From NCBI GenBank assembly GCA_013152225.1, contig JAADGR010000204.1, positions 1-42,792 of the forward strand: a stretch of 42,792 bases of DNA, given 5' to 3'. The DNA is from Calditrichota bacterium. Its GTDB lineage: Bacteria > Zhuqueibacterota > Zhuqueibacteria > Residuimicrobiales > Krinioviventaceae. Positions 1 to 20,657 of this stretch are shown here, in pieces. The notes beneath the pieces were generated by a model that was not told where the DNA came from, did not search any database, and saw only the letters and a list, made by a program, of their open reading frames with translations. The number at the start of each line of letters is the position of its first letter. Position 1 is the first letter of the stretch. A program made the translations under genes and the position numbers.

Positions 1-527
1 TAATTTTTGTAAGTTACCCAGTCAATAACGAACTTCGTTTTCACTGGCTTTGTTTCTTCAATTTTTATCATAGAGTATGGGTGTGCCATCGAGGAAAACC
101 ATGTACTGTCGGCTAAATTCCAGGTACCCGAAAACTTTGTTGTTTGCGTAGTAATCTTATACCATTTCATCCCTAAGGAATCTCCCACTGATCTCCCAAC
201 AAATTGACCTACATAAACATTCACATAAATCGAATCAATCGGTTCTGCCCGGATGCTTAATAAGGCATATCCCGACCGATTCTCAATTGGCACCGAAAGC
301 AGCGTATCCGTTTCAGAATTCATGAATTTGACACGTTTATAGGGCCACTGGTTCAAAGTGGTATTGCTGTCAGTAACGACTTCCCAGAATATACTATCAG
401 CCGGATTTTCCGGAAATAACTTAAAAGTGTCATAATATTCGAAAGCAACGTTCTTTCGAAAATTCAGATTGCCGAGAAGGATGATTACCACAATTATCAA
501 AAGAATTGTGTTAATATTATTTTTCAT
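1..527 (-). CDS. hypothetical protein with N-terminal hydrophobic signal/anchor segment; C-terminus lies beyond the window start
   Basis: The minus-strand ATG at 527-525 is preceded by AAGGAG (534-539). Hand translation gives MKNNINTILLIIVVIILLGNLNFRKNVAFEYYDTFK... and stays open to position 3. It is absent from the ORF track because it is truncated. Confidence 0.55.
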   Translation of the reverse strand, partial: MKNNINTILLIIVVIILLGNLNFRKNVAFEYYDTFKLFPENPADSIFWEVVTDSNTTLNQWPYKRVKFMNSETDTLLSVPIENRSGYALLSIRAEPIDSIYVNVYVGQFVGRSVGDSLGMKWYKITTQTTKFSGTWNLADSTWFSSMAHPYSMIKIEETKPVKTKFVIDWVTYKN

Positions 528-537: not shown

Positions 538-3500
538 TTATTTTGCTATCAATTCTCTTTCTTTAACCTTAAATTTATTCTGCAAATAAATATATTCAAA
601 ATATTCTTCGGGCTTAAATTTACGTGCTTTTATCTTTATTCTCAACACTTTTAATCGCTCTTTATCTTCCGTTTTCCATTTTTCAACGAGTTTCCAATTC
701 TGTGTAATAATATCTGCAATCTGTTTGTCTTTTTCCTTTTTCGTCAATTTCTTATTCCGCTGAATAGAGCGAATCCGTTTGATTGTGTATTTAATAAAAG
801 GCTCTAATGGATGCGGATTCTCTGTATTTCTGCGAATTAACATTTCACGATATTCACGATAAAATCTCTGCGTGTATTTGTTTCTTAGCGGCATATCCCG
901 TGCAAATAATGTACCGATGATAGGCAGATCTGCCAGTTCTTCGCGCTTTTCTTTTTCCTTTATACCCGTAACTGCTTCTACTGGTCTGATAATTCGGCCA
1001 AATAATCCGCCGGTATAAGCATTGAGTAAATATTCTAATTGAATTGGTGATATACCATCAATCCCCAGCGGTTTCAATATCTTTTTCACCGCCATTTCGG
1101 CTGTCTTGGTGGTCCAGGGATAAGTAATTTCAGACGGTGGTTTTGTTTCTCGCGCATATTTAGGCTCAATAGGCCTGCCCGCCCAATCCTTATTTGCCAT
1201 AACCTGCATATAGGGGCCGATTCCAGCAATATTCATTGGCAAGGGGAATAGACTTACAAATTGTTCGTAAAATAAATATTTCAAATACTCTTCGGTTACT
1301 TCGGGATCATTTTCTAATTCCAGAAGCAGCGTTTGTGTAGCCCCATGAAACAGAGCACCTATGACAAAGGGCGTAGGAATGATTAAATGCGTTCCGTTTA
1401 TCCAGAAGTGGAAATAATTATATCGGAAATGTGGTTCCAGTTTTTCCCATTCATCTCTATTCCGCAGAAAATAAGAAAGCATTGATAGCCCTACAAGCCA
1501 TACGATCCCTTTCGCGAATCGTTTTGCGGCATTAATTCGGGTGTAAACTGGTCTTTGTGTGTAAGGATCATAGCCAGTAATCTCTTTTTCTGTGAAGAAA
1601 GCACGGATAAATTTTGAGAATCCCTGGATACCCGCATTATAGAATGGAATAATCTGATTTAATTCACGACCAACGGTTCCTGCACGTGCAAAATCCACAG
1701 TCACATCCTGGCTGGCCCTGGCGGCTCTGGCAAAGGCTTCCTCTTTGTCCCCGGTCTCCTTAAGTACTTTATAGTAAACTTTTTTAAACTCATCAATGCG
1801 TGTTGCATTTTCAATGGCAGAAAACAGTAATCTTAAGCCTTCAACCGGATGTTTCATCCCAAATTTAATTACATTCCCGTCCACACGTTCGATGAGCAAA
1901 TCGGCCATGGCTTCGAGTTTCGCGCGGTCATATCCGGCCATGGTGGACATCACACCACCAGATTTTGCATAAAGCTCGGCCATCTTTGGATCAATGCCCA
2001 GTTGCTTCAACACATCCGATACTTCCTTTCCGCGCATTAGTTCGGATATTAGACCGCTAACTGTATTGTGTAATGGGATTGTTTTTCCGCTTTGTGACAT
2101 TACCAAACCTTCAAAAGAATCCCGGAGTGCGTTACGGATAAATATAAAAGAAGGATTGATACCCGTAGCGCCGAGGCGCACTGCCCTTGCAAAAGGGGCA
2201 AGAAATTTAGCAAGTCCAGTAACAGGTTTCGCGTCAATCTGCATAATGAATTTATAAAGTTCTGGGTGCAATTCATACCATTTGCGTCTTCCATTTTCCC
2301 AAACAGATACTACTGGAATACCCTGTTTGTTGAAATAAACCTGCGTAAAAAAAAGATTCAATTTTATATCGATGTCCCCGATATCTTCATTTGGTTCTAC
2401 CACGCCAAGATCTGTTAGCATATCTACTAAATTATTTACACTAATTGTCTTTGCCTCCACCGGCGGGCTGGTCTTTTTAATCAATGCAGACAGACCTTCA
2501 AAATTGGTCAAATTGACCATAGCATTCATTAACCGCGCTTTCTGGGCCCATATTACCATTCGCTCCGTATGTTTAATCCACGCATTTATCATTGGCTCCA
2601 ACGGTAAATCAGATCCCTTCGCACGCTTGATTGGTGAAGGTTGATTGGCCAAACCTCTTCGAGTAATAGCATAAACAAGGTCTTTATCACTTAATAAATT
2701 CCTGAGCAAAGGAATGTAATATGGGTATCGATCACGCATCTTCTGATAGAGCTCTTCGGATATACCACCCTCGCGCATGACCATTCGCAAAAGTTCATCA
2801 AAATATTTCGTTACTTCATCGCCGAGATCATCAAAATCCTTATTTTTGTACTTATCTACAATGTACCTTGCCTGCTCTTCGGAAATCCCCGGATTTTTCG
2901 GTTCAACACCCTCTTCCACTGGATTCCACCAGGTCAATGCATGTCTTGCATAGATGTACATCAGAAAATCATCTAATCGATGTCCGCGATCTACGACATC
3001 TTTAAGGATTTGCCGGATGCCACGGGTAATTGTTTCACCAGTATGAATATCGTAAACCCCATTATTAATCATTTCATCGGCAATCGCTCCAGCTTTCATC
3101 TTAAAATTGCGGTAAATATGAATGGGATTCTCTTTTGCCCTGAGACCATAATAGTTAGCTCCCAGCATCTTTTTAAATAACCACTCAACAACTGCCGCAT
3201 CATCAACGAATTTCTGACGCAGACGCTGATAGAGCAACGCGATACTGTTTAGCGTGTGTTCAAAAGGTGAATCCCCGATATCCTTTAGCACTTCTTTAAT
3301 TCGTTTAAGCCGATTTCTCGGTTCTGTTAGGCCCGCTTGTGCTTTGACAAAATTCTCGATCCCCTGTTCTCTAAATTTCTTAATTAATTTCCGTGCCTTA
3401 CGGAAGCTTTTATTTTTATCATGTTTTTCAAGAATCTCACTTTCAAAATATTCTGTAAAGTTAGGTGCATATCGTTTTGTATCTTCTCCAGTTAACCATA

Positions 3501-6500
3501 AACGAATGAATTCAGAAAACCCTTCGGCAGTGCGTCTCAAATCCTGATCATAGTCCAGATTTCTTAGCTCAGCGTTGAAAACTTCTTTGCCGAAGTCTTG
3601 ATCAATATCCACTTTACCAAACATGCGATTTTGCAGGTAATGACCTAATTCATGGGCAATAGCGTCAATATCTGCTTCACTTCTGGATTTGACCAATCCG
3701 TAAACGTAATATTTCGCTTTAATCTCTTTGAGCCATCGATCCAGATTTTTCTTTCTGAATTGGACCTCCGGGAACAGCTTACGTAATTTTCTGATCAAAT
3801 CCTTAGTGGACATTGCTTCCTGCTCGCCCACATCAACAATCAAATCCGCCGGAGCCTGAATCGGACGAACGGTGCCAGCTGCCACAGCAAATCCTTCTCC
3901 TTGGCGCCGTCTCCGGATGGATTTCCCCTTTTCTTCAAGAATTTCATTTACTAATGCTTCGCTGGATTCAACAATGCCTTCTTCAATATCAAGTTTTTTG
4001 ACATCCCCTTTTACCGTTGCTCCCAGCGCTTTCATTTTATAAGAAATGATTGCCTTATTCCATTCATCGACTTCTGTATCAGAAAAAATAAAGTAAACTT
4101 TTGCACGGGATTTAGTCGTTACACGAACAATACGGCCAGCCATCTGGACGTTATCCATCGCTGAAAATGGCGGCGTAATAACAATCATACTTCGCGGCTT
4201 ATCGCCGATTACATCATCCAGATTGATGCCCGTACCCCCGCTTTGTGGGGTTGCCACCAATACCTTAGTTTCACCTTTTTGAAAACGCTGGATTTCTTTT
4301 TTCGCGTCTTTATTAGAACCATATACTCTGGAAAAAGAATTTTCCCCGTATTTCTCCGTTAAAGCTTGCTCTAATTCTTTTATCGTTCCTTCAGTGGCAG
4401 AAATAACCTCCACATGGTAGTCCACGAGATTACCAGATTGATCATAAATTGGAGTTCGATGAACAACTTCTGTTGCATTAACTCTTGTGGCAAATACGAC
4501 AACTTGTCTACCTTCTTTAATCTCTCTCTCAATGATTTCCAGAGTGGAATTTACTTTGTAATATTCTAAAGCCCGGCGTTGCGCCATGAGATTCCTGGCC
4601 TTCAGCAATCCATCCATTTTTGGATCGCCGGTCATCATATTTGTATAATATTTGTCGATGGCCTCAAGATCAATGTATGCCTGATCAGGTAATTGAACCG
4701 TTACAACTTCCACATCCAGCTTATCCAATGATACTTCACGTTTAACCATCTTTCCTTCAGATGTAAGCTGGTCAAAGTAACGGGACAAATTAGCGGCCAT
4801 TTCTGCAGCAGTTACATCCGGTTTCCTGGAATAGTAAATGATTTCTTTTCTGCCATATTTCGTGTTGATTTTTCGACGTACTTCAATGACACCCAGTTCA
4901 TTAAGGATGGCCAGGAATTCATTGTAGTCTTTAAAAATCCCGAGCTTATTCAAATAATAAATTTGTTGGGGTTTGTCTAATGGTGTGGCCGAAGCATAAA
5001 GTACCCGCGCGGAATATTCGGCAAGTCTAATCCCGTTTTTCGCTTTGGCGCTTTTATCAAAATTTTTCAAATTGTGAGATTCATCGAATATTAAAACAGA
5101 TAATCTCGAACCAATAGACAATGGGATCTTTTTGCGTGTAAGGTCATGATATGTAGCTACATAAATTTTATTGTCTTCAATGTTCCCTTTGAACCTCTCA
5201 ATTTCCACTCCGAGTACAGCCGCATCCTTTTCAAACGCATCTTTGATAATTCGATCGTTTTCCGTAATGATTAGCGCAGGTTTGTTTTCTCTGTCCGCAT
5301 AATATGCCGCAATAGCAAGTTCTTGCATTGTTTTTCCTGCACCCGTTCCATCGGCAAGTAAAAAACCACCATTTTTATCAATGGATTCAATTGCCAGATT
5401 AACGCCATCTCTTTGATGTGGTTTTAAAATTCCGCTAATGCTCGGATGTAAGTGATCCTCCGACGGACTCCGGGTGAATTCCGACCGCGCTTCGACAACT
5501 TCTTCGTATTTTCTTGGACTTCGTGGTAAAAGTCGGTATTTACGTCCACGACCACTTTCTTTTGCAATGCTTTTCGAAGTCTCTTGTGATTTGCCTTCAT
5601 CTCTGGCCTCCTTATGATCTATTAATTGCTTAATTAAAACTCGATTTGCATCAACACGGAATGTTGCCAAATCATCCTCAACGAAATCCGGGTGAATCTC
5701 AACAATCTCACCATTATTAAGTACCCGAACAATTGTGCCAGTAACTTCCTTTTCCCATTCTTTTTCCGGTTTAACCAGTACCTTAGTCCCATAGAATCTT
5801 TCTTCTTCCTCAATGGGCACTTTACCGATGACTTTATCAAATGAATTTTCTTCTGCCGGTTTGTTGATAGTTACTAACCGCACCTTCACTCCAGTCGGTC
5901 TCTCGGAAGAAAGAAAAGCTCCTTCTGGCAACTTCTCACTTTCCCCACCAATTCGCGCTAACCATTCACGAAATTCGACGCTCTTTTTATCTGTTCTATT
6001 AAATGGGCCTTCACTCATGATGGCCACAAGTTTGCCACCGGGTTTAAGCAGTCGATAAGCATGCTGGACATGATCAATGTCTTGACCGTTCTCAAACGGT
6101 GGGTTCATTAAAATTTTATCGTATTCTCCTTCAAATTGCAGAAAATCCTGGCCGACGATTTTAAATCCGCGCAATTCCAGTAATTCACGCAATGTTGAGC
6201 TAATCTCGATAACATCCGGTTCAACGCCTGTTTTCTCACGTATGACCAATGCAATATTCCCTTTTCCTGCACTTGGTTCTAATACCTTATCGCCCTTTTT
6301 AATATCAGCGATTTCGACCATCCGCTCCGCAATTGGCTTTGGAGTCGGAAAGTAGCTTTCTATTTTTGTTCCGATTAATTCACGTTCACGTTCCTTAATC
6401 TTTTCTTCTTTAATTTCAGCTTCAGTTTTTGGTCTGATGTATTCATTTAATAACTTCTTAACTTTTTTTAAGTCACCCGTTGTCTCAATTCCTGCACGCT

Positions 6501-9500
6501 CAAATCGCCTGATTTGTTTGATCGTATCATCAAGTATTTTCAATGTTGGATTGATTTCACCTTTTTGTTTCTTAATCGCCTTCAGAATAGATTCTACAGC
6601 ATCGATTTCAACATCAGATAATATAGCTTTTGCCCCTTCACCGGATAATCTCTTTTCAATTTTCTTGATTATCGCTTTATCTTTGGAAATCCCTTTTACA
6701 TTTTCACTGTCTTTCAGTAAATCGTTGAGTCGGAATGGATATAAAACAACTTCCGGAAAATTTTCTAATCTGAGTACATCTTTAATAATTTGCTGAGTGT
6801 CCAATTTGAAAAGAGCAGAATTCAATTGGCCTTTTTCCGCATCTGTGATCATTCCCTTAATGATATCTCTCACTTTCTTAAGAAATTCCGCTTCCCGGGC
6901 CATACCGGCGGCAATTCTTGCCCTTCTCGGCGTAACACGTTGTTGAGCAATCGCCGGATTTTCCAGCTCATCAATTTTCTTTTCAATGCCGGGTAAAATC
7001 TTTTCTAATTTTTGAGCTAACTTCTGCTGATCAGTTGGAGGTTGTTTTTCTTCTTTCTCAGCTTTTTCAGGAACAGTTGGAGCCGTTTCAGTTGCTTCTT
7101 CAATTCCTCGGTTGATGGCATCACGACGACCTTGTTTGATTTCCTGGATGGTTTCATCCTTTACACCTTCCTCTCTTATTTCATTTTCAAGATTCTCTAT
7201 TTGACTGAATAGATCTAATTGAGATTGCCGTATTTTTTTAAGCGCTTCATCTCGGTTCTGCTTTAACTCAATTAATTCCTTTTGAATTGCGGAAACTTTC
7301 TCTTCATAAGGCTTTAGCGCATTAATTAATTGTTCACCTTCAGCCCCTTGTTTCAGAAAATATTTACGTTTTTCATCAAGCTCTTTCTTGGCATCTTTGA
7401 GTTCGCCTTCTAAATGCGCGATTTTTTCATCGTATTCAATTTCATCTGCACTACGTGGTACAAGATTTTTCAGATTAAGAGGTTGGCCTTTAATTCCACC
7501 GAAAAGTCCACCACCACGTTTCTGGATTGCGCGATTTATGAATTCTCGGAATTCTGAAGATGTACCGAATCGTTTACCAAATTCCATTAAATAATCCCAC
7601 ATCTCAGTTTCGTGGGAATCTTCAAGTTCCGTGAATTGACGCCTGGCCTCCCCAACCCATTGGGCATATTTAACTACATCCGGATCTTCACCAGTGCGTT
7701 CAAGCGCTTCAATAACTTTACCGTCTGGATTTAAGAAAGAATAAGCAAGGATTCGATTTGCGTTTCGACCTTCGTATTTTTGTGCTTCTTCAATGATTTC
7801 CTTTCTGCTTTTCCCCTGTCTTCTGAGTTCACGGTAGTATTGAGCACGTTCGACGGCCGTTTCTTTTGTGGCCAATACATTCGATCGTTTAGCGATTTCC
7901 TGAGCTTCCTGTTTACTTACTCCTCGAATGATTTTGGCAGGGATTTTCTCAAAATCCGTTAGACCCTCTTTTGCTAATCGCTTAAAAGCCTCAGTTCTTG
8001 AATGCCCGGCAAGGATATACAATTCATTCGTTTCCGGATCTTCCCACAATAAAATTGGATCGAACTCCTCAAATCGGAATTCACCCTTTTTTGCAGCCTC
8101 AACAATTCGATTTACAGACTCTTCGCTGTATTCACGTTTGCGATTTTGAAAGGCATCAACATCGGTTTTAATTTGAGATAAAGGTATATCAGAAATTTGG
8201 ATTTTTTCTGTTGGTTTAAGTTCCTTCCGTTCCTTCAATTTATTTTTGATTCTTTCATATAGGTTTTTAATTAAATTATAATTCTCCTCTAATTTTTTCG
8301 TCATTGCATCATCGGGCATCTTCTGGCGCATTTCTGCAAGAGAAGGTTCAACTCTTTTCATGTAATTTTTTAATTCCTGAAGGATTACATCAGCGTTGTT
8401 AGGTTGTTCCTGCTTCAACAATAATTCAGCACGTTCAACGAGTCCTGATATGAGATTATCTGGTTTTTCTGGTGTTCTACCTTCAGACTTCTCTAATAAT
8501 TTGTTGTTTATGTCTTCATATTTTTTAAATAAGTCTGGATAATTGCTAAGGATATCGGGTGGGACTGGATGACCTTTTAAAATCTGCTTTTCAATAGTCT
8601 TTTTATGTTGAATCAATTGAATTTCATCAAATAAGTTACTCTCAGTTAAATCTTTGCCTTTCTTTTTCAGTTCTCTTCTGGCGATCTGTTCTACTTGTTC
8701 ATCGGATAGATGGGCATATAGTGTTTTTTCTTCGGCTTCCTTCTCTTCCTGTTTTTTCCGATAGGTCTTAATTTCATCCATGAATCGTTCATATGGAATG
8801 ATCTCAACATCTTTAGCTTCTTCTTCAAATCGCTTTCGACTCTCCTTATCTAATTCATGGATTTCTGGACGATATCCAATTGTGGAACCTTGCGGATCGT
8901 TAACCAAAACAACTGCCTTCTTGGCGCCCGGGACAAACTGTAACCCTACATATTCGACCGGGATTTTCTCTTCTTTTTCTGGTACCGCTTCTTCGCCCTT
9001 TCGACCTTCTTCCGGTCGTATCCCGGATATACCGGGTTGTCCGGGTGCTGGCTGTTCCAGATCCTTGCGGCCTTCCGTTTCGCGGCCTTCAGGGGCAATC
9101 CTTCTCTCACGAATTTGTCCCTCATCTTTTCGTAACCTTTGGGCATTTTCTATTTCCTCCGCTAATGCCTTTTTGCCAATCTGGAAAATATTCCCTTTGT
9201 CATTCTTTACTGTCACTAAAGATCCTGTAATATCAGTAATCTCAACCGGGCCATATTTTTCTGTATCTACGATATTTCCGATTTTAATCTCAGCAGGCTT
9301 CTCAATTCTTTGTTTAATAGGCTCCTTCTTCTTTTTTGCGCGTTGTTTAATTCGTTCCAACTTTTCACGATCTATTTTTTCCCTGCGTTTACGCTCTTCC
9401 TCGCCGCGAACATTAATGCGTTCATGAAGTTGTCTTTGTTTAAACTCTTCCAGTGTTTCACCGAGACGAACGGGGCCACCTGGACGTTGAACATTTAATG

Positions 9501-10800
9501 CTTCGCGCTTGGCAATTTCATCAAGGATCTGTCGATATTGCTCTTCTTCTGCTCTCTCCATCCTTTGTTGTTGGATCGCATTAATTGCATCGACGTTAAT
9601 CTGTCCAACAGCTCGACCACCCAGCAAGATAGCCATGGGGCCGGCGGATTCTAAGAGTGTACGCATTACGTTTATGAAATAGTCACGGAGACCGAAGTTT
9701 TGGACATCTGTTCCAGCGATCAAATTTGATATCTTTCGTCCCACATCCTGAAAGATCATTTGCGATAATTCCTGTAAACCTTCTTCGCCAACTTCCTGAA
9801 TCCAGTCGCGCCCATATCGCTTTACCATCTGCTGGACATACTCTTTAGCCGTATCGGCGATAATACGGTTTGCTGTTTGTTTGAGGCCTGGAAAAATTTT
9901 CGCTGCCTGACTGAATTCTATGGCTGCATAGGGTAAACCACCTGCCTGTGAAACAATAGAAGCTATTTCTCTGGGTATCCCTTCACGACGAAGATCCCTG
10001 TACAAATCCCCAACACCTTGCCGATACCAATATTGTGCGGATCCAATAATAGTACCAATCGATGCTGCAGCCGGGACTGTGAAAACTTCTTCTGGAGCAA
10101 GGATTTGTGGCCCGGCCTGGCCTGCGGCAGCTGCAGCGCCTGCCAGTGCACCACCGTAAATTAAACCTTCAAGCGTACCCTTTGCCATGGGGCCAGCAAT
10201 ACCAGCGGCACCATAAACAAATTTCTCCAGCCAGTTGCGTGCTTTAATTGGATCATCTTTGTACATCTCAATAAATTTCTTTTCCGCTACCTGCCATTCG
10301 CGATCACCACTTAATCCAACTGCCGCCTGATAAGCAAGATGATCGATGTTAACATCTTCCATAGACCGCTTAAATGATTCCTTTAGATTCTCAAGGAATC
10401 CTCTCGGTCTGGGTTCAAGTTTGGGCAATGGCTTTTCTTTAACTCCCGGGGCATACTTTAAACCCGCAGGGAGAGGCGGAGGAGTAACCTCTCCCTGCTG
10501 TGGTTCGGCCGTGGGAGCTGGAGGAGGTACGGCAGAAGGAGTAATCTTTTCTTTTCGGAGTTGTGGCAACTCTCTGACTCCACCAGCAAGCGTAATTAAT
10601 TTGGCTTCTGCTGGCTCCTGTGGGCCAGGGGCTTTATATTTAATTTTTCCTGCGAATCTTAACGTGAAAGCACCCAAAAATTTATTGTAAGGGATGTCTG
10701 AATAATATTTCTTATGAATCCCTTTCAGGATTTGATCATCAGAGAGATCATTGTATTGCGGGTATTTCTCCCTGAAATTTTTGAGTGCCTGATCAATCAT
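538..10800 (-). CDS. giant polyvalent protein (3,420 aa): ParB-like domain + N6-adenine DNA methyltransferase + SNF2/SF2 helicase + HExxH metallopeptidase motif + hydrophobic segments; probable virion-packaged ejected protein
   Basis: This is an uninterrupted 10.3-kb ORF. Motifs read from the translation: ParB-like ELYILAGHSRTEAF (about 7981-8030); MTase motif I VLEPSAGKGN (6256-6285) and motif IV NPPF (6094-6105). Helicase motifs are PHQRDGV, LADGTGAGKT (about 5328-5360), DESH (5074-5085) and QMAGRIVR (about 4121-4150). HELGH lies at 3640-3654. Gly/Ala-rich hydrophobic stretches lie at about 10000-10230 and hydrophobic segments at about 1320-1520. Confidence 0.85.
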   Translation of the reverse strand: MIDQALKNFREKYPQYNDLSDDQILKGIHKKYYSDIPYNKFLGAFTLRFAGKIKYKAPGPQEPAEAKLITLAGGVRELPQLRKEKITPSAVPPPAPTAEPQQGEVTPPPLPAGLKYAPGVKEKPLPKLEPRPRGFLENLKESFKRSMEDVNIDHLAYQAAVGLSGDREWQVAEKKFIEMYKDDPIKARNWLEKFVYGAAGIAGPMAKGTLEGLIYGGALAGAAAAAGQAGPQILAPEEVFTVPAAASIGTIIGSAQYWYRQGVGDLYRDLRREGIPREIASIVSQAGGLPYAAIEFSQAAKIFPGLKQTANRIIADTAKEYVQQMVKRYGRDWIQEVGEEGLQELSQMIFQDVGRKISNLIAGTDVQNFGLRDYFINVMRTLLESAGPMAILLGGRAVGQINVDAINAIQQQRMERAEEEQYRQILDEIAKREALNVQRPGGPVRLGETLEEFKQRQLHERINVRGEEERKRREKIDREKLERIKQRAKKKKEPIKQRIEKPAEIKIGNIVDTEKYGPVEITDITGSLVTVKNDKGNIFQIGKKALAEEIENAQRLRKDEGQIRERRIAPEGRETEGRKDLEQPAPGQPGISGIRPEEGRKGEEAVPEKEEKIPVEYVGLQFVPGAKKAVVLVNDPQGSTIGYRPEIHELDKESRKRFEEEAKDVEIIPYERFMDEIKTYRKKQEEKEAEEKTLYAHLSDEQVEQIARRELKKKGKDLTESNLFDEIQLIQHKKTIEKQILKGHPVPPDILSNYPDLFKKYEDINNKLLEKSEGRTPEKPDNLISGLVERAELLLKQEQPNNADVILQELKNYMKRVEPSLAEMRQKMPDDAMTKKLEENYNLIKNLYERIKNKLKERKELKPTEKIQISDIPLSQIKTDVDAFQNRKREYSEESVNRIVEAAKKGEFRFEEFDPILLWEDPETNELYILAGHSRTEAFKRLAKEGLTDFEKIPAKIIRGVSKQEAQEIAKRSNVLATKETAVERAQYYRELRRQGKSRKEIIEEAQKYEGRNANRILAYSFLNPDGKVIEALERTGEDPDVVKYAQWVGEARRQFTELEDSHETEMWDYLMEFGKRFGTSSEFREFINRAIQKRGGGLFGGIKGQPLNLKNLVPRSADEIEYDEKIAHLEGELKDAKKELDEKRKYFLKQGAEGEQLINALKPYEEKVSAIQKELIELKQNRDEALKKIRQSQLDLFSQIENLENEIREEGVKDETIQEIKQGRRDAINRGIEEATETAPTVPEKAEKEEKQPPTDQQKLAQKLEKILPGIEKKIDELENPAIAQQRVTPRRARIAAGMAREAEFLKKVRDIIKGMITDAEKGQLNSALFKLDTQQIIKDVLRLENFPEVVLYPFRLNDLLKDSENVKGISKDKAIIKKIEKRLSGEGAKAILSDVEIDAVESILKAIKKQKGEINPTLKILDDTIKQIRRFERAGIETTGDLKKVKKLLNEYIRPKTEAEIKEEKIKERERELIGTKIESYFPTPKPIAERMVEIADIKKGDKVLEPSAGKGNIALVIREKTGVEPDVIEISSTLRELLELRGFKIVGQDFLQFEGEYDKILMNPPFENGQDIDHVQHAYRLLKPGGKLVAIMSEGPFNRTDKKSVEFREWLARIGGESEKLPEGAFLSSERPTGVKVRLVTINKPAEENSFDKVIGKVPIEEEERFYGTKVLVKPEKEWEKEVTGTIVRVLNNGEIVEIHPDFVEDDLATFRVDANRVLIKQLIDHKEARDEGKSQETSKSIAKESGRGRKYRLLPRSPRKYEEVVEARSEFTRSPSEDHLHPSISGILKPHQRDGVNLAIESIDKNGGFLLADGTGAGKTMQELAIAAYYADRENKPALIITENDRIIKDAFEKDAAVLGVEIERFKGNIEDNKIYVATYHDLTRKKIPLSIGSRLSVLIFDESHNLKNFDKSAKAKNGIRLAEYSARVLYASATPLDKPQQIYYLNKLGIFKDYNEFLAILNELGVIEVRRKINTKYGRKEIIYYSRKPDVTAAEMAANLSRYFDQLTSEGKMVKREVSLDKLDVEVVTVQLPDQAYIDLEAIDKYYTNMMTGDPKMDGLLKARNLMAQRRALEYYKVNSTLEIIEREIKEGRQVVVFATRVNATEVVHRTPIYDQSGNLVDYHVEVISATEGTIKELEQALTEKYGENSFSRVYGSNKDAKKEIQRFQKGETKVLVATPQSGGTGINLDDVIGDKPRSMIVITPPFSAMDNVQMAGRIVRVTTKSRAKVYFIFSDTEVDEWNKAIISYKMKALGATVKGDVKKLDIEEGIVESSEALVNEILEEKGKSIRRRRQGEGFAVAAGTVRPIQAPADLIVDVGEQEAMSTKDLIRKLRKLFPEVQFRKKNLDRWLKEIKAKYYVYGLVKSRSEADIDAIAHELGHYLQNRMFGKVDIDQDFGKEVFNAELRNLDYDQDLRRTAEGFSEFIRLWLTGEDTKRYAPNFTEYFESEILEKHDKNKSFRKARKLIKKFREQGIENFVKAQAGLTEPRNRLKRIKEVLKDIGDSPFEHTLNSIALLYQRLRQKFVDDAAVVEWLFKKMLGANYYGLRAKENPIHIYRNFKMKAGAIADEMINNGVYDIHTGETITRGIRQILKDVVDRGHRLDDFLMYIYARHALTWWNPVEEGVEPKNPGISEEQARYIVDKYKNKDFDDLGDEVTKYFDELLRMVMREGGISEELYQKMRDRYPYYIPLLRNLLSDKDLVYAITRRGLANQPSPIKRAKGSDLPLEPMINAWIKHTERMVIWAQKARLMNAMVNLTNFEGLSALIKKTSPPVEAKTISVNNLVDMLTDLGVVEPNEDIGDIDIKLNLFFTQVYFNKQGIPVVSVWENGRRKWYELHPELYKFIMQIDAKPVTGLAKFLAPFARAVRLGATGINPSFIFIRNALRDSFEGLVMSQSGKTIPLHNTVSGLISELMRGKEVSDVLKQLGIDPKMAELYAKSGGVMSTMAGYDRAKLEAMADLLIERVDGNVIKFGMKHPVEGLRLLFSAIENATRIDEFKKVYYKVLKETGDKEEAFARAARASQDVTVDFARAGTVGRELNQIIPFYNAGIQGFSKFIRAFFTEKEITGYDPYTQRPVYTRINAAKRFAKGIVWLVGLSMLSYFLRNRDEWEKLEPHFRYNYFHFWINGTHLIIPTPFVIGALFHGATQTLLLELENDPEVTEEYLKYLFYEQFVSLFPLPMNIAGIGPYMQVMANKDWAGRPIEPKYARETKPPSEITYPWTTKTAEMAVKKILKPLGIDGISPIQLEYLLNAYTGGLFGRIIRPVEAVTGIKEKEKREELADLPIIGTLFARDMPLRNKYTQRFYREYREMLIRRNTENPHPLEPFIKYTIKRIRSIQRNKKLTKKEKDKQIADIITQNWKLVEKWKTEDKERLKVLRIKIKARKFKPEEYFEYIYLQNKFKVKERELIAK

Positions 10801-11639
10801 AATAACCCTCTAATTCCCAGAGGATCCTTTTTATGCGCCGGCTCCGGTTCCGCACGAATACCCTTTTCTTCAATGCGCTTTATCATCGATCGATTCCGGC
10901 GATATAAATCAAAAGTTTTCATTTTATTTAAAATTTCTTCGTCCTTTTTAGTCCAATTCCCACTTTCACGTTTCTTCCGAAGCATTTCAATTTTATCCAG
11001 ATATTCGGCATAAATCTGTTCATCTACAGCACGTCGTTTAAACTTTGTTTCTGGCATCCCTGTTGTTGGGCTAATTGTTTTCTCCTCAAATGGAACACCT
11101 TTCTCATAACGTTCACGAGCTGATTGCTCTAATCGATTCAATCGTTTAATGATTGGATCTTCAGTTCTAACTTTTCCTCCTCTTGCACCTCCCGGCTTCT
11201 TTGTTAATTCTCGGTATCGTTTTGAAATAAGTCTGACTTCTTCGCGTGTCCAGTTGGCATCCGCAGGGATCCGAAAGAAATTAGCCACTTCCGGATCCAA
11301 TTTATATGTTTCGAATCTAACCGGCGCCTGGCCACTCTGGCCAACCATCCCGATTAATTCGCCCATTTTCATATAAGCCTGTTGACGAATCGCAGGATCA
11401 ATATTTTCATTATCGGCAATACTCTTCCAGTAATCGTATTCGTTTTTAGATCTCTGTAAAGTTTCCTGTCTTTTTAGGATTTCCTCTTGATATTTTCGCT
11501 GACGATTTAGAATTTCTTCCTGTCTTTTCCTCTCGGCTTCAAGACTTCGCTGGAGCTCGCGTTTCCTCAAATTCTCTTCAGCAATCATATCCACAGCGGA
11601 CATAATTTGAGAAAGATATGGATTTTGATGGATGCTCAT
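10797..11639 (-). CDS. charged coiled-coil protein, possible internal virion protein
   Basis: This 280-aa ORF has an ATGA overlap with the giant gene start. It contains a heptad-like charged sequence (RKRELQRSLEAERKRQEEILNRQRKYQEEILKRQ). Function is inferred from position only. Confidence 0.6.
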   Translation of the reverse strand: MSIHQNPYLSQIMSAVDMIAEENLRKRELQRSLEAERKRQEEILNRQRKYQEEILKRQETLQRSKNEYDYWKSIADNENIDPAIRQQAYMKMGELIGMVGQSGQAPVRFETYKLDPEVANFFRIPADANWTREEVRLISKRYRELTKKPGGARGGKVRTEDPIIKRLNRLEQSARERYEKGVPFEEKTISPTTGMPETKFKRRAVDEQIYAEYLDKIEMLRKKRESGNWTKKDEEILNKMKTFDLYRRNRSMIKRIEEKGIRAEPEPAHKKDPLGIRGLL

Positions 11640-11800
11640 ACGCGCACTCCAGTATATTTTTCAAATAATTCAATCAATTCCAGCATGCGATCGGCAAGAA
11701 TCGCCGTAACCAGATTTCGGTCATTGGCATGTCGATTTGCCATCCGCTTAATCATTTTTAATCTTTCTCGATCTTTCTTATCGATCTCTTTTAAAGCCAT
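11636..11800 (-). CDS. small hypothetical protein (54 aa), below the ORF-track size cutoff
   Basis: Hand translation is MALKEIDKKDRERLKMIKRMANRHANDRNLVTAILADRMLELIELFEKYTGVRV. The ORF exactly fills the 162-nt gap between neighbours. Its ATG is 1 nt after the upstream TAA and its TGA overlaps the downstream ATG (ATGA). Confidence 0.55.
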   Translation of the reverse strand: MALKEIDKKDRERLKMIKRMANRHANDRNLVTAILADRMLELIELFEKYTGVRV

Positions 11801-11801
11801 T

Positions 11802-12296
11802 TTAACCTAATAGCCCTGCCTGCCATAATAATGCAATTTTCCCTAAACTCCCAGTTGTACCAAATAACTCATCAATTTGAGCATTACGGAATGCTGCCTC
11901 TCCCATTTTGTAACGATTCAAATAATCAAAAAATCGTCTCTCCCCTTCTTTCTTCATTTGAGCCAATCTGGCTTCAATTTTAGGTACAGCCTCAATGGCT
12001 CCGCGTCCGACTTGGTAGGTTGACCCGGCAATACCCGATAAGATGGCACCGGAGGGCATACGCCGTGCAGCCCCTGCTTGCTGTATTGCTGATACATTTT
12101 TCAGGTTCAGCATGTTCAAATTCTCGCGGACACCCGACATCGCCCCTTCACGTATTTTTGCCAGGTCGCTACCGCTGTACATGATGTAGTCCCGATATAG
12201 CTCGGGATTCAACATGCCGAATTCCATGAGAAACGGCTTGATAAAATTCAATGCCGTCATACCGCCAGCAATTAATGGTAATGCCGGGCCAGCCAT
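11802..12296 (-). CDS. hypothetical structural-module protein (164 aa)
   Basis: The ORF sits in the co-directional late operon. It has a hydrophobic/Gly-rich N-terminus (MAGPALPLIAGGMTALNF). Confidence 0.6.
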   Translation of the reverse strand: MAGPALPLIAGGMTALNFIKPFLMEFGMLNPELYRDYIMYSGSDLAKIREGAMSGVRENLNMLNLKNVSAIQQAGAARRMPSGAILSGIAGSTYQVGRGAIEAVPKIEARLAQMKKEGERRFFDYLNRYKMGEAAFRNAQIDELFGTTGSLGKIALLWQAGLLG

Positions 12297-12308
12297 GGTT
12301 TTTCCTCC

Positions 12309-12635
12309 TTAAGCAAAGTGTTTCTTCAAAAACACCAGAATTACCACCGCGATTTTGATTGCATCTTCGATGATCGGCTCAATGTTGTCCTGCGGGATAT
12401 CGAATTCCTTGGCGATGGTTTCTTTGATCACTTCAAATTCGGCTTCTTCCATGTCTTTGAGTTCTTCCGGAACCTTCTCAAAGCCAGAAAGCGCACTGGG
12501 TAACTTGGTGAGCGAATCCACAAAATATAAAAGATCCGCGACATCAAACTTCTTGTCCTGCAGGGCTTTTCCCAGGCTGTTACCAACGGCTAAACCAAAT
12601 CGGATGACATCTAATGTCTCTTGAATACCGGCCAT
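12309..12635 (-). CDS. hypothetical acidic protein (108 aa)
   Basis: The ORF sits in the late operon with short intergenic spacers. Confidence 0.55.
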   Translation of the reverse strand: MAGIQETLDVIRFGLAVGNSLGKALQDKKFDVADLLYFVDSLTKLPSALSGFEKVPEELKDMEEAEFEVIKETIAKEFDIPQDNIEPIIEDAIKIAVVILVFLKKHFA

Positions 12636-12650
12636 AACGACCTCCTTAAA

Positions 12651-12971
12651 TTAGTTTAAAATTATTTTGTTTAAATATAAAACAATCAGTGCACTGAGCA
12701 AAGCACTTAAGAAACCCAATGCACTGCTAAATATCAGCATCGATGCATCGTAGCGTCGCTTTTTTTGATTCTTTATCCATCGTTTGATTTCCCTGATTTC
12801 CTTTGAATTGTCAGCGACACTAAAAACGATGCTCTCTTTACCACCGTTCTTTTCGAAAAGAAGATTATGAATCTTCTCCAGAACGATTTGAGTAGCTTCC
12901 TGGTTATTAATGACTGTCTGCACCTTCGTTTCCAGTGCCGCAATCCGCTCTTCGATTGTGATTTTCCCCAT
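12651..12971 (-). CDS. hypothetical protein with C-terminal transmembrane helix (106 aa)
   Basis: The N-terminus looks like a coiled coil. The C-terminus is hydrophobic (MLIFSSALGFLSALLSALIVLYL). Confidence 0.6.
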   Translation of the reverse strand: MGKITIEERIAALETKVQTVINNQEATQIVLEKIHNLLFEKNGGKESIVFSVADNSKEIREIKRWIKNQKKRRYDASMLIFSSALGFLSALLSALIVLYLNKIILN

Positions 12972-12974
12972 TTC

Positions 12975-13214
12975 TCAATCCTTTGTTAAGTCCGAACTAT
13001 TTAAAGCGTCAATTAATTCATTCAACTTATCAAAAACATTTTGTAGGGTCTTACTATCGTTGCTTCCTTTTTCGGCTTTGTCGAGTTTTTTAATTCGCCT
13101 TGAATTCAGAAAACGTATCTGATCATCATAGTGCGCGAATAGCTTCTCGAAAACTTCAGGTTTGTTGGTATCTTCAGGTCTCATTATCTTTAGTGGACGA
13201 TTTTTTGTTTCCAT
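12975..13214 (-). CDS. hypothetical protein (79 aa)
   Basis: The ORF has an AAGGA-type SD upstream of the ATG at 13214. It overlaps the 3' end of the upstream gene. Confidence 0.5.
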   Translation of the reverse strand: METKNRPLKIMRPEDTNKPEVFEKLFAHYDDQIRFLNSRRIKKLDKAEKGSNDSKTLQNVFDKLNELIDALNSSDLTKD

Positions 13215-13428
13215 TGACCTTGTCCTTTATTTTATCTTTAATTTGTTTACTCTTTTCAAGGCTCTTCTCGTATCGATCCCGGATAAATTCAATGAATATA
13301 TCAAATACCTTCAAGAACAATCCCACCTGGCCACCAATAATCAATCCTAATTTATCAGATAGGGCCAAAAAATCCAGAATTGTTTTGATGATTTTCTTTT
13401 TTTTCTTTTTGTCCTTTTCTTTGGCCAT
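13174..13428 (-). CDS. hypothetical Lys-rich/amphipathic small protein (84 aa)
   Basis: The ORF lies immediately downstream of the 894-aa gene. It has a poly-K N-terminus followed by a hydrophobic stretch (IIKTILDFLALSDKLGLIIGGQVGLFL). Confidence 0.5.
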   Translation of the reverse strand: MAKEKDKKKKKKIIKTILDFLALSDKLGLIIGGQVGLFLKVFDIFIEFIRDRYEKSLEKSKQIKDKIKDKVNGNKKSSTKDNET

Positions 13429-13437: not shown

Positions 13438-16122
13438 TTACATGTTATTCCATTTTTCAATGATTAATTCAATTTTCTTAATTTCATTTGACACATCCGT
13501 TGAAGCCGCTTCTGCGCTAACGGTTAAATCCATCGTCTTAAACAGATATTTCGGGAAATCTTTGATTTCCTTCTCATTAGTCGCATCCGGAGTTAATGTC
13601 TTCTGATATTCCGTTTTTTGTGGATCTTTCACTTTCACAACAAGATTCTTATTTCCTTTGCCGAATATTCGAATCTCCTTTAGTTTTTTCCAGAAATAAG
13701 GTGAATCATTGTCAATAATCCGACTTTTAAGCGAAAAGGTTACACTTTCGTTGAATGTCGAATCGTTATGGCTATAATCCACAAATTTTGTTTGATTGAA
13801 CACAACAAATCGTCCGTCTGCATCAACAAAATAACCTTTTATCGGGTCAATGTCTGTGTCTCTCTCATACCATTCTTGCCGATTTGGATTATAAACGAAT
13901 ATCCGACCATTGAGGAAAAGCCATAATTCGTTATTCACTTTATCCCAGGCCAAAAAACTATTTTTGTCAACGTATTGTTTATAAATGTTCTGCATCATCT
14001 GGTTAGCGAGGATTGGTCTGGGGGCAACGCCGGTGTATTCATAGACTTCTTCACGATCCATAAAATAAAGAATGTTACCAATGACTACTGTTCCGTTTTC
14101 AGCAAATAGGCCGATCTGGTTATCAATGTAATCATGGTAAAATTGATTTCCCGCAAACTGAACCTGTGATATGCTTCTCTTCTTTAGAATCATCAGGCGA
14201 TCATCACGTTTGACGATTGAAAGATTTTTATCAAAATCGCCTGTTTCTGTTTGAATAATATTGAGGTTCGGAAACACATCAAATTGATATTCTGGGCTGT
14301 AGCGAATCACATCTTCTTCTTCGTCCTCAAGTGATGTTACAAATGCACGTTCATTCAAAACGACGTGATGACGATAATTCGGGCTAATATCTTTTGTACC
14401 TGGTGGAATACCTGTGAATTCGTGGTATTCGACACCTTTATAACCAATTGACAAATCTGTTAAATAAACATTATTATTTGTATCTTCTCTCCAGATTCTA
14501 TCGATTTCAAAAGTAGCATCGAATACCTGATCTACATCTGAATTCAATAAATTAGGATATACGTCATCTGCAAGTTGGATATACCACGCACTACCAAGAT
14601 AAGAAGATGATGCCCGTCCTTGCTTTATAACAGTTGTATCTAATCTGCCACCACCAACAACCTCAATAGTAACTTTACATCCCTCGTAAAAATAACCATT
14701 CTCCCACCAAACTTTTGTCGTGTGATTTCCTGCAGCAATATAAATTCGATCTTTAGTCGCCGTTTCGTATACGCATTCAGTATGTTCATACTTAATAGGT
14801 GTTAAAGGTTTTGTAAAATCAAAAGTGGTGACGACATACCACGGTATTTTTTCCCTTTCATATACAGACGTAGCTACATCATAAGGCGTACCCCACTCGG
14901 AGACATAAGTAATTCTTTCATTCAATCCTACTACTATAGCAATTCCGGTAATTCTTTCATCCAAATCAGTAGGTATTCCAAGGGAAATTTTTTGTGGTTC
15001 CATCTCAAGAATATAGTTTTGAGGTAACCACCTAAAACCAGAATCTGTCTTTTTGCATATCATATCCTCATGTAGAGGATATTGTCCAAAATCATATATG
15101 TAAAAATATCCCAAATACATTGTACCTGGGGCTGTATTATGTTTTTTAAATACATCATCAAACTGTGTATTCCAATAATTCTCAGCAATTTCGTTTTCAA
15201 TCCTGGCCTTTTTAAGGAACCATGCAGGACCAACTTGATCAGCGTCAATTCTTTCGACTTTTACTTCATCAATGTACAACGTTCCCGTTCCTGTAGATTC
15301 ATCACTTGGCCAGACTGCAATTTCAATTTGATTTGTTTCCGCTTTAAAAATACTTGAAGTAAATTTTATCCATCTGTCAGTTGAACTAAAGGTTCGCTCT
15401 TCTATGGTTTCAGTTCCACTTGATAAATGTTTCCATATTTTTACTTTGTAAATCCTTTGATCGTCATTACTATCCTTATACATATTTATTGAGACACGAT
15501 AATATTTGCCTACCGTAACATTTATTGGCTGACTTGTTGCGTAACCATAAGTCTGTGACTGAACAATCTTTAGAGAATAAGTTCCCTGAAAAGCATATGT
15601 CGAACTCTGCGATATATTTGCCCAATTACCAAACCAGCCATCCGTTCCACTCTCGAAAGTATCTTGTTTAATTGTTACTAAATTATGATAAAATCTTTGC
15701 CTATCGATATAACCATACCACATAGGCTCAGAAGCACCTGTAATCCTGACCACCCCACGATAATAAAAGAATTTTAATACGGCATTGGAATCAATCGTGA
15801 CATCATCAGGCAACGTTAAAGTAGTTGGCGTAGCATTGCTATATCCATTCGTTTGATCCCAATCTAATCGTTTTAGAGATGTTCCATCCTGATAAAGAAT
15901 AAACCGATCTCCGGATATATCATCCGTAACTTCAATTGCCGCCCGGATATCTGCACCGGAAAGAGCAAGAATATCCTTATAACCTTTACAGGTCACCCAT
16001 TTCCCGAATTTGTCCTGTTTGAGATTCTTGACTTCCTGATATTCGATGTTGCTGAGATCATTCTCAGAAACGTCTGTTCGCATTCCACCAGGACGCAATG
16101 TGACTTTTACCAACTCTCCCAT
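13438..16122 (-). CDS. large tail (nozzle / tail tubular B-like) protein with CBM-like jelly-roll insertion
   Basis: This 894-aa ORF follows a ~200-aa ORF, the same size and order as T7 gp11/gp12. The segment DTFESGTDGWFGNWANISQSSTYAFQGTYSLKI...YIDEVKV (about 15245-15665) resembles CBM_4_9-type carbohydrate-binding modules. Confidence 0.6.
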   Translation of the reverse strand: MGELVKVTLRPGGMRTDVSENDLSNIEYQEVKNLKQDKFGKWVTCKGYKDILALSGADIRAAIEVTDDISGDRFILYQDGTSLKRLDWDQTNGYSNATPTTLTLPDDVTIDSNAVLKFFYYRGVVRITGASEPMWYGYIDRQRFYHNLVTIKQDTFESGTDGWFGNWANISQSSTYAFQGTYSLKIVQSQTYGYATSQPINVTVGKYYRVSINMYKDSNDDQRIYKVKIWKHLSSGTETIEERTFSSTDRWIKFTSSIFKAETNQIEIAVWPSDESTGTGTLYIDEVKVERIDADQVGPAWFLKKARIENEIAENYWNTQFDDVFKKHNTAPGTMYLGYFYIYDFGQYPLHEDMICKKTDSGFRWLPQNYILEMEPQKISLGIPTDLDERITGIAIVVGLNERITYVSEWGTPYDVATSVYEREKIPWYVVTTFDFTKPLTPIKYEHTECVYETATKDRIYIAAGNHTTKVWWENGYFYEGCKVTIEVVGGGRLDTTVIKQGRASSSYLGSAWYIQLADDVYPNLLNSDVDQVFDATFEIDRIWREDTNNNVYLTDLSIGYKGVEYHEFTGIPPGTKDISPNYRHHVVLNERAFVTSLEDEEEDVIRYSPEYQFDVFPNLNIIQTETGDFDKNLSIVKRDDRLMILKKRSISQVQFAGNQFYHDYIDNQIGLFAENGTVVIGNILYFMDREEVYEYTGVAPRPILANQMMQNIYKQYVDKNSFLAWDKVNNELWLFLNGRIFVYNPNRQEWYERDTDIDPIKGYFVDADGRFVVFNQTKFVDYSHNDSTFNESVTFSLKSRIIDNDSPYFWKKLKEIRIFGKGNKNLVVKVKDPQKTEYQKTLTPDATNEKEIKDFPKYLFKTMDLTVSAEAASTDVSNEIKKIELIIEKWNNM

Positions 16123-16748
16123 TAGGTCAACCCATATGGATCATTTGTTTGATAAATTTTAACTGCACCGCCAATAATCTTCGGCGTTGTATGGCTGAAA
16201 TCTTTGACTTCGCTCAACCTTGCTTTGAGTTTAAAAAATAATGCCTCATCCCTCTGCCTGAATGGATAATCTGGAGATAAGTCCAATGCCGTCCCATACA
16301 CCAGAATCTGGTGAAGATCCTCCTCAACCCATTCAGGGACATTCGTTTCCCCGGTTGCAGGCGTGTCTTTATCAACGATTTCGTATCCGGTTGAATAATA
16401 CCAGGCTTCAATCGAAGTCGAAGAATCCACGTTGTAAAAGTAAATTTTATCCCCTTTGAAAGTGAAAATCTTCTGATCTGTACTGGCCAGCATAAAATCC
16501 TGTAAATCAACATAATCGTAAGCCGGATCCATCGCGAAAAACTGTATTAAATCACTGGGGCGATCGACGTAATTGACCGTATCAGTAAAGCTATTAAACG
16601 TTGTTTTACGTGTCAGGCAAAGCAATTCACGGTTCAATTGATGATATACGCGATTGATGGCCCGCAAAATAAATTTAGGGCCGTTTTCTCGCAGAACCGA
16701 AACGCCTACTCGATGAACAACATCTTCAATGATTTCAGAAGCTTTCAT
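16122..16748 (-). CDS. tail tubular A / adaptor-like protein (positional)
   Basis: This 208-aa ORF has a 1-nt TAATG overlap with the downstream 894-aa gene. Function is inferred from synteny only. Confidence 0.5.
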   Translation of the reverse strand: MKASEIIEDVVHRVGVSVLRENGPKFILRAINRVYHQLNRELLCLTRKTTFNSFTDTVNYVDRPSDLIQFFAMDPAYDYVDLQDFMLASTDQKIFTFKGDKIYFYNVDSSTSIEAWYYSTGYEIVDKDTPATGETNVPEWVEEDLHQILVYGTALDLSPDYPFRQRDEALFFKLKARLSEVKDFSHTTPKIIGGAVKIYQTNDPYGLT

Positions 16749-16756
16749 TCTTTACC

Positions 16757-16975
16757 TCAAAAATAAATGTATTTTTTAACAGCCCATAGAAATCTTTTAA
16801 ACCAATCCCATGTTCTATGATCGTAGTAAAAACAATCGAAAATAGAGTAACCGCAAGAGAATGACCATAGTAAAGATAGCCAGTACGACCTGCCTTCATT
16901 CCGAAATGCTTTATGGTAGAGCCAATTCGGAATTCTCCTTCGAATGAACTCCAATTTCCAGTAAAGATTTATCAT
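16757..16975 (-). CDS. small Trp/Phe/Tyr-rich hypothetical protein (72 aa)
   Basis: The ORF fits the gap exactly and has a 4-nt overlap with the upstream gene. Its unusual aromatic-rich composition lowers confidence. Confidence 0.4.
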   Translation of the reverse strand: MINLYWKLEFIRRRIPNWLYHKAFRNEGRSYWLSLLWSFSCGYSIFDCFYYDHRTWDWFKRFLWAVKKYIYF

Positions 16976-17595
16976 TTCTCCTCCTTTGGCAGCATGCCAT
17001 TAAGCTCATCCTGAAAAAGTTGCTGCATTGCTGAAGCCAGATTCGGCCGGTAATTTTCGATCAGGGCAGACAAAGACGTCGCATAATAAACCAGAAGATT
17101 TTTAAGGGAATATCTCAAAAGCGAATCCTGCGTTGAGGAAATATTCGGCAACGAATAAACATACCGAATTCGAATACCCTCAGTGACCGTGGTCTGTGGC
17201 TCCGGATAAATAGCAAATCCGTTCTCTACATTCAAATCAATCATTGGGAAATTTTCAGAAGCAAAGGTTTGTTTATTACCGATGTAAATAAAACGTTCAT
17301 CGGGCAGGGGAGTACAGGGTTTTCCGGGATTTGAATAGGTGATGGTGTTCTTGTAATCCACCCAGGCAGCAACAAAGCGAATATAATCATCTGGCCATTG
17401 ATAGGCAGATTGCCCGGCCTTTAAGTCCGTTTTGGACGTCTTTACCGCATTAGAGATAAACTCAAGCGGTAAAATCAAAAGCAGGTGTTCTTGAGCTTTA
17501 TTAAGATTTTCGTCGACCTGAAATCGATCTTTATCCGTTGAATCGATTTCCAGAAACCCAAGAACAGCATCCCGGAGCTCAGTGTATTTAATCAA
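16972..17595 (-). CDS. hypothetical head-tail connector-region protein (207 aa)
   Basis: The ORF lies in the structural operon between the capsid genes and tail genes. Confidence 0.55.
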   Translation of the reverse strand: MIKYTELRDAVLGFLEIDSTDKDRFQVDENLNKAQEHLLLILPLEFISNAVKTSKTDLKAGQSAYQWPDDYIRFVAAWVDYKNTITYSNPGKPCTPLPDERFIYIGNKQTFASENFPMIDLNVENGFAIYPEPQTTVTEGIRIRYVYSLPNISSTQDSLLRYSLKNLLVYYATSLSALIENYRPNLASAMQQLFQDELNGMLPKEEK

Positions 17596-20656: not shown

Positions 20657-20657
20657 G

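Follow-up and report, generated by a model that had tools for sequence, protein, structure and literature searches.

A giant open reading frame and its domains

The window analysed here is an entire contig of 42,792 bp (JAADGR010000204.1, assembly GCA_013152225.1) from an uncultivated, podovirus-like phage, and all of its major genes lie on the minus strand. At 538..10800, one open reading frame (ORF) encodes a protein of 3,420 amino acids (aa), called the giant below, in which ParB/Srx-like, N6-adenine methylase, SNF2 ATPase and zincin-like domains stand between two conserved end modules (Table 1). Genes for the large terminase (TerL), portal, major capsid protein (MCP) and adaptors lie upstream of it on the same strand, which is a late, structural context. 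The giant is probably a polyvalent protein of the phage type that also serves its podovirus as the large ejection (internal virion) protein.

The ORF listing and a translation with zero internal stops bear out an earlier sequence-only reading, according to which the whole interval is one uninterrupted ORF; it begins with ATG. The start codon is credible, since the ATG and the stop codon of the preceding ORF overlap in the sequence ATGA, a GAGGG Shine-Dalgarno-like site precedes it, and the first 40 residues share 52% identity with the N-terminus of a 2,634-aa protein of Vibrio phage vB_ValP_FGH (FGH). All motifs listed in that reading were found where it had put them, apart from a trivial slip at EPSAGKGN, which starts at 6256 as claimed but does not extend to 6285.

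Table 1. Features of the giant and of the genes around it, all on the minus strand.
Feature	Residues of the giant	Position	Remarks
Whole giant ORF	1-3420	538..10800 (-)	3,420 aa, ~388 kDa, 0 cysteine
Small three-helix N-terminal segment	1-45	10666..10800 (-)	52% identity to FGH protein N-terminus
All-helical Gly/Ala-rich N-domain	125-400	9601..10428 (-)	conserved, no Pfam/PHROG family
Charged low-complexity/coiled-coil spacer	411-860	8221..9570 (-)	no family assigned
Divergent ParB/Srx-like module	863-1200	7201..8214 (-)	FQNR and GHSR boxes, then helical region
ILAGHSR motif	929-935	7996-8016 (-)	
Helical lead-in (LPD36-like position) and gamma-class N6-adenine methylase	1346-1657	5830..6765 (-)	motif order FPTPKPIAE (TP motif), EPSAGKGN (motif I), NPPF (motif IV)
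EPSAGKGN	1508-1515	6256-6279 (-)	
NPPF	1566-1569	6094-6105 (-)	
SNF2/Strawberry-notch-type SF2 ATPase	1792-2290	3931..5427 (-)	GTGAGKT, DESH, SATP, QMAGRIVR
PHQRDGV		5401-5421 (-)	start of helicase motif span, aa 1794-2226
GTGAGKT		5329-5349 (-)	Walker A
DESH		5074-5085 (-)	
QMAGRIVR		4123-4146 (-)	arginine finger region
Zincin-like domain	2368-2560	3121..3699 (-)	HELGH and downstream GEGFxEF glutamate
HELGH	2383-2387	3640-3654 (-)	
All-alpha C-module	2561-3320	841..3120 (-)	conserved, LPD38 at end
Strongly basic helical tail	3321-3420	541..840 (-)	
ORF downstream of giant		1..527 (-)	N-terminal signal anchor, runs past contig end
Six small ORFs (280, 164, 108, 106, 79, 84 aa)		10797..13428 (-)	cysteine-free
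894-aa ORF, nozzle position		13438..16122 (-)	label from position only
SU10-type adaptor paralogue		16122-16748 (-)	SU10_adaptor match
SU10-type adaptor paralogue		16972-17595 (-)	SU10_adaptor match
MCP		18449-19687 (-)	
Portal		20658-22556 (-)	
Scaffold candidate, 313 aa		within 18449..24767 block (-)	
TerL		23061-24767 (-)	
Replication genes (initiator, SbcC-like, Sak4-like)		(-)	first in gene order, before TerL

The N-terminal segment is followed by a Pro-rich disordered linker (aa 50-120) and then by the N-domain. Gly/Ala-rich hydrophobic stretches had been reported at about 10000-10230; they are present, but they lie at about 9570-10180 (aa 208-257 and 375-409) and actually form part of a large conserved domain family. 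Further hydrophobic stretches are found towards the C-terminus, at aa 3094-3202. A transmembrane reading of these stretches was rejected, as hydropathy stays below 1.5 in every window of 19 residues. When 1.84 billion representatives were scanned exhaustively with HMMER, the N-domain matched 854 proteins at E <1e-3 and 88 at E <1e-30. In nearly all of the best 150 matches listed it stands close to the N-terminus, and 122 of them are at least 1,000 aa long (up to ~4,400 aa). Its best matches in BFVD are the first fragments of other viral giants, which are annotated as RelA/SpoT, LPD-containing, helicase, methylase or MuF-C proteins. A tblastn search of 50,697 GenBank phage records returned nothing for the N-domain, which low-complexity filtering may partly explain. 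Neither Pfam nor PHROG has a family for it. This unannotated group of at least 854 protein clusters is new and would merit a family of its own. A universal N-terminal signal was also considered and found unsupported, the KYP...SD.EI motif being present in just 2 of 172 relatives.

The ParB/Srx-like domain proposed from the sequence is supported only at the level of profiles. Taken alone, this region matches only Spo0J, at E 0.003, and Pfam models, ParBc and ddrB-ParB included, give no significant match to it on 500-aa tiles, the tiling that also gave no match to the polyvalent MPTase and LPD36 models. A profile built from 20 homologues matches Noc (1.9e-4), ParB and Spo0J in the range 2e-4 to 8e-3. 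In these matches FQNR pairs with FQPR and GHSR with GERR; F35, Q36, R38, H84, S85 and R86 are invariant in the homologue alignment. One homologue, a segment of SSIP-1 gp43 (32% identity over 350 aa), lies above the Pfam ParB_N threshold, and so does one further member of the family. The module is also 38-44% identical to stand-alone proteins of 344-621 aa, many of which carry an N-terminal hydrophobic segment and a Cys-rich DUF3761. Other relatives of the module are fused to RadC or HicA, and two have precomputed Pfam assignments to PF18796 and PF18798, the latter being LPD3. Judged by such sequence comparisons, the module behaves as a mobile, unannotated ParB/Srx clade. Among the giants compared that have the N-domain, methylase and helicase, it occurs in the window protein only. 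When 8,000 word-sharing candidates were scored, no protein covered more than 42% of the ParB-to-methylase stretch, and a colinear ParB-methylase protein was not found. The ParB insertion thus looks new, and unique among the relatives compared.

The methylase and the helicase, both recognised in the sequence-only reading, are clear. The methylase region, from aa 1346 on, matches PHROG families of methylase-bearing giants at 1e-87, and it also matches M.TaqI in the PDB and P1 DarB (28.5% identity over 228 aa, E 2e-6). LPD36 gave no Pfam match at the lead-in; in the proteins of FGH and SSIP-1, about 130 aa preceding the core of the methylase are conserved as well. C-terminal to the methylase lies the SNF2-clade SF2 ATPase, the layout of the DarB-type dyad. 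It matches SNF2-rel_dom, ResIII, AAA_34, Helicase_C and Helicase_C_4 in Pfam (aa 1792-2269) and ISW1 and CHD1L in the PDB.

The HExxH motif turned out to belong to a conserved zincin-like domain whose database support is weak. In relatives having this domain, the motif and the glutamate of GE(G/A)xxEF are kept in 10 of 10. The following thousand or so residues, formerly called uncharacterised, are really a conserved module that ends in LPD38 (Pfam match at aa 3116-3294 = 919-1455, E 5.3e-19, 69.5 bits against a cut-off of 27). This C-module is homologous to Bcep22 gp75 (E 1e-76), and the unit of zincin-like domain and C-module (aa 2368-3320, ~950 aa) is conserved in 19 metagenomic proteins and in the FGH protein. 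Resemblances of the end-module models to ABC transporters and MFS proteins were dismissed as generic long-helix matches with TM-scores <0.2. Residues 3301-3400, largely within the tail, hold 31 K+R against 14 D+E; in T7 gp16, positively charged C-terminal residues are required for infectivity, according to a review.

Conserved ends, a variable middle and the absence of cysteine

The relatives of the giant share its ends and differ in the middle. A set of 5.8 billion proteins was searched for them with the giant in three pieces. Other domains found with the C-module are MuF_C, ART-PolyVal, PBECR3 RNase, GNAT, nucleotidyltransferase, M15 peptidase or methylase, and a recognisable C-module is present in 22 of the best 150 N-domain relatives. 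Six metagenomic giants of 3,562-4,340 aa are colinear with the window protein over the N-domain, methylase and helicase, and half of them also over the C-module. One of the six (P0041) lies in a locus (L007) that is syntenic with the window: it has an MCP gene, two adaptor genes, an 895-aa gene, five small genes and a 3,562-aa giant. The order adaptor, nozzle, giant recurs in a second locus (P0004, L003). About 40% of the giant consists of the constant N- and C-modules, the parts that are conserved across the family. Since relatives swap clear effectors (ART, RNase, GNAT) into the middle, and the catalytic motifs are intact, this part appears to be a cargo slot under selection. It had been suggested that the domain order and size might be undescribed. 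This was an overstatement: the size is not exceptional, Bcep22 gp75 reaching 4,602 aa, and the backbone order of methylase, SNF2 ATPase and, further on, LPD38 has been described before.

A second property common to the family is the lack of cysteine. The giant and the six small ORFs upstream of it (821 aa in sum) contain none in 4,241 aa, and the other ORFs of the window that were counted (9,469 aa, six small ORFs included) contain 1.05%; at this rate, the probability of finding no cysteine in the giant is ~2e-16. Across 149 N-domain relatives the content is 0.028%, and 109 have no cysteine at all. Cysteine is scarce also in the 19 C-module relatives, and Bcep22 gp75 has none. In a single-sequence scan, four IMG/VR loci were found to encode cysteine-free giants that are preceded by cysteine-free ORFs and a cysteine-containing ORF of nozzle size. 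The same holds for proven ejection proteins. T7 gp15 and gp16 have no cysteine, other T7 virion proteins having 0.5-2%, and N4 gp50, gp51 and gp52 have none either. Lack of cysteine thus seems to be a hallmark of ejection proteins in podoviruses generally. This hallmark, common to proven ejection proteins, is new: no published description was found in the literature searched, which is no proof of its being unpublished. By this rule the giant and its small partners upstream stand out as one block, and if the rule holds, ejected proteins would be predictable from sequence in uncultivated phages.

The polyvalent class, probable ejection and rival explanations

The giant is another example of the polyvalent proteins described in 2017 (Iyer et al., PMC5512222), an assignment that is well supported and expected. 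These proteins carry several unrelated enzyme domains per polypeptide, and with ParB/Srx, N6-adenine methylase, SNF2 ATPase and zincin-like domains the giant likewise combines functionally unrelated effectors. The likeness extends to the methylase-SNF2 dyad, a putative zincin-like peptidase, a ParB-superfamily domain and LPD domains, and to a late-gene context with portal and terminase. On the other hand, the ParB of the giant is not of the DdrB type, the polyvalent MPTase model of Pfam does not match its zincin, and the N-domain has no counterpart in Pfam. The comparison with this class and with P1 DarB, made from the sequence alone, was well founded: LPD38 is present, and the TPKPIAE helix and NPPF are shared with DarB.

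Among characterised proteins, the closest is Bcep22 gp75, with SLT, methylase, SNF2, LPD3 and LPD38 domains. Like the giant, gp75 and its homologue JC1 gp69, both termed DarB-like, are single giant ORFs at the end of a podovirus virion module, with the order methylase, SNF2, LPD38 and a homologous C-module. Unlike the giant, gp75 starts with an SLT transglycosylase and has LPD3, and segments corresponding to the N-domain, ParB and zincin were not detected in it; profiles of the methylase, helicase and N-domain of the giant gave no match to gp75, the first two being too distant. P1 DarB (2,255 aa), a head component that protects DNA in cis, likewise has a gamma adenine methylase followed by an SF2 helicase, with YYTPKPIAE where the giant has FPTPKPIAE. 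It differs in belonging to a myovirus and in its nine cysteines, and its helicase match to the giant is marginal (E 0.06). BLASTP and the profiles built here gave no similarity of DarB to the N-domain, ParB, zincin or LPD38 parts, and these profiles, those of ParB, zincin and C-module included, did not match DarB, DdrB or DarA.

In size and gene position, the nearest functional analogue is the N4 virion RNA polymerase gp50 (3,500 aa), which is also cysteine-free and encoded last, after two small ejection proteins and tail genes. This gp50 is an ejected enzyme and not purely structural, and a zincin-like MPTase domain has been reported in it (Iyer et al., PMC5512222). Its cargo is an RNA polymerase instead of methylase, helicase and ParB, and no sequence relation to the giant was detected. 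In phi24B gp47 (2,811 aa; LPD5, LPD1, MuF-C, LPD38), LPD38 is shared with the giant, and the cargo set is different. T7 gp15 and gp16 resemble the giant as cysteine-free ejection proteins encoded after the nozzle gene, but gp16 has 1,318 aa with SLT as its only enzyme domain, and neither its sequence nor its fold matches the giant.

Packaging in the virion is suggested by virion data on homologues, by synteny and by the absence of cysteine. The gene follows two SU10_adaptor genes, the 894-aa gene and the six small ORFs, which is the slot of podovirus ejection proteins. Genes after the adaptor or nozzle encode such proteins in T7, in SU10 (gp20-24, after the nozzle and needle genes) and in N4, with the gene order gp53-gp52-gp51-gp50. 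The earlier placement in this slot is supported by the two SU10_adaptor genes and nozzle-sized gene upstream and by synteny in relatives; the statement that the giant is the last large gene of the late operon needs amending, as it is late but not strictly last, an ORF at 527 on the same strand following it. The C-module was found in 89 cultured-phage records, and the 40 sampled belong to groups that we take to be mostly short-tailed, such as Bcep22-like, GP4-like, HTVC010P and Bacillus megaterium Page-like phages. One of its homologues, JC1 gp69, was shown by mass spectrometry to be present in virions (JC1 paper). The LPD38 protein gp47 is in the virion proteome of phi24B, and its authors propose that it is an ejection protein with a conduit role. 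SSIP-1 gp43 is annotated as a structural protein.

If the giant is indeed ejected, a few copies would be packed in the capsid alongside the small cysteine-free proteins encoded upstream. Four copies would weigh ~1.55 MDa, which is about the mass of the T7 core by our own estimate from published T7 copy numbers. On infection they would pass, extended, through the channel of portal, adaptor and nozzle. The helical N-domain and the LPD38 C-module may form a constant chassis for packaging and/or for a conduit across the envelope, with the variable middle as cargo. The DarB-type methylase and SNF2 translocase would protect the entering DNA in cis from restriction by methylating or shielding it, and the ParB/Srx domain could serve either as a DNA clamp that depends on NTP or as a nickase. 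The zincin-like domain would probably cleave the polyprotein into working pieces; processing of the chain by a zincin has been argued for polyvalent proteins (Iyer et al., PMC5512222).

Several observations weigh against this interpretation. Neither end module could be related to a solved ejection protein or ejectosome by PDB profile search or Foldseek. The AlphaFold model of the C-module, all-alpha with a mean predicted local distance difference test (pLDDT) score of 63.5, had no significant Foldseek match in the PDB, nor did the profile of its family, and the same Foldseek search was negative for the fold of the N-domain (pLDDT 70.4); both scores are moderate. A hydropathy scan revealed no strong transmembrane helix in the giant. 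The 894-aa ORF found no match by tblastn against the phage records, by PDB search or in other databases, so that its nozzle label stays positional. Matches of the zincin-like domain are weak (Pfam ATLF, E 0.019; anthrax lethal factor by Foldseek, probability 0.60, E 2.4), and the Pfam polyvalent MPTase model does not match it. A DdrB-type ParB was sought as well: none of the 20 family members gave a ddrB-ParB Pfam match, and no significant match to P1 DdrB was found. Finally, as the packaged P1 DarB contains cysteine, the cysteine-free signature is not universal among packaged proteins.

A rival explanation, that the protein is mainly structural, an equivalent of T7 gp16 that builds a trans-envelope conduit and whose enzyme domains have decayed or are accessory and do little or nothing against host defence, would agree with the family-wide conservation of precisely the end modules, with the N-terminal SLT domain that Bcep22 gp75 has in common with T7 gp16, and with the conduit proposed for phi24B gp47. 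We consider it unlikely, because EPSAGKGN, NPPF, GTGAGKT, DESH, QMAGRIVR, HExxH...E and GHSR are all intact, and because relatives exchange the middle for clear effectors. Slightly less likely again is a late enzyme with no virion role, which would methylate or remodel progeny DNA in the cytoplasm before packaging, much as orphan methylases do. Methylase and helicase domains could well work on replicating DNA, and the phage is known here from its genes alone; however, homologues occur in virions, the gene sits in the tail and ejection block and not among the replication genes, and the loss of cysteine throughout the family has no obvious reason in a cytoplasmic enzyme.

An origin of the ORF by assembly or sequencing error, with neighbouring genes fused through lost stops or a chimeric assembly, is very improbable. 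A single contig is indeed the sole source of the exact protein, which has its 90%-identity cluster to itself. Yet independent assemblies encode colinear giants of 3,562-4,402 aa with N-domain, methylase, helicase and C-module, one of them in a syntenic locus, so the ORF is neither a chance feature nor an assembly fusion; moreover, isolated phages carry homologues of 2,634-4,602 aa, base composition and skew run smoothly along the gene, and a scan for promoter-like and terminator-like sites found no excess over shuffled sequence.

Returning to the giant as a packaged polyvalent protein, a wider proposal can be put forward tentatively. The N-domain and the LPD38 C-module might be the two ends of a widespread delivery chassis that takes arbitrary effectors, near-zero cysteine might be the hallmark of proteins threaded through the tail, and the giant might be the first to add a new ParB/Srx clade to the DarB-type dyad. 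If so, one injected molecule would mark or shield phage DNA and act on host or phage DNA through ParB. In small podoviruses, giant polyvalent proteins take up between a fifth and a quarter of the genome, and to our knowledge almost none has been studied biochemically. With intact motifs for four activities and a chassis-and-cargo layout, the present protein offers a clean test case.

The surrounding genome

The contig has no nucleotide match among the 50,697 phage records, and the closest portal of cultured phages, in KPP25 and phiR18, shows 21% identity. No tape-measure or tube gene was found in the window. The six small ORFs before the giant may encode small ejection proteins; a single hydrophobic helix is present in three of them, and the last is the one coupled to the giant by the ATGA overlap. 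If the contig is closed into a circle, the ORF that follows the giant stops two codons beyond the junction (42786-42792) and yields a signal-anchored protein of 177 aa. No terminal repeat was found on the contig, and the closing of this ORF suggests that it is a complete, circularly permuted genome.

The two adaptor genes stand in tandem (16122..17595), separated by a 72-aa ORF. The duplication is also present in the syntenic locus L007; most podoviruses, as far as we know, have a single adaptor gene. Between the terminase and portal genes, at 22553-23064 on the minus strand, lie two adjacent paralogous ORFs of 92 and 78 aa. Their products are cysteine-rich and zinc-ribbon-like, with CxxC pairs, and the genes share a 57-nt direct repeat (22726-22782 and 22968-23024).

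The stretch 24800-28400 is the sole region with positive GC skew and a GC content >50%. It contains a tRNA-Phe gene (25870-25938, plus strand), an odd tRNA-like call (26239-26305, plus strand) and a GC-rich palindrome (26340-26393), and it may mark an origin or the border that separates early from late modules. A short TCTGTA-like tandem array is located at 29699-29774, within the replication-initiator gene (29170-30144).

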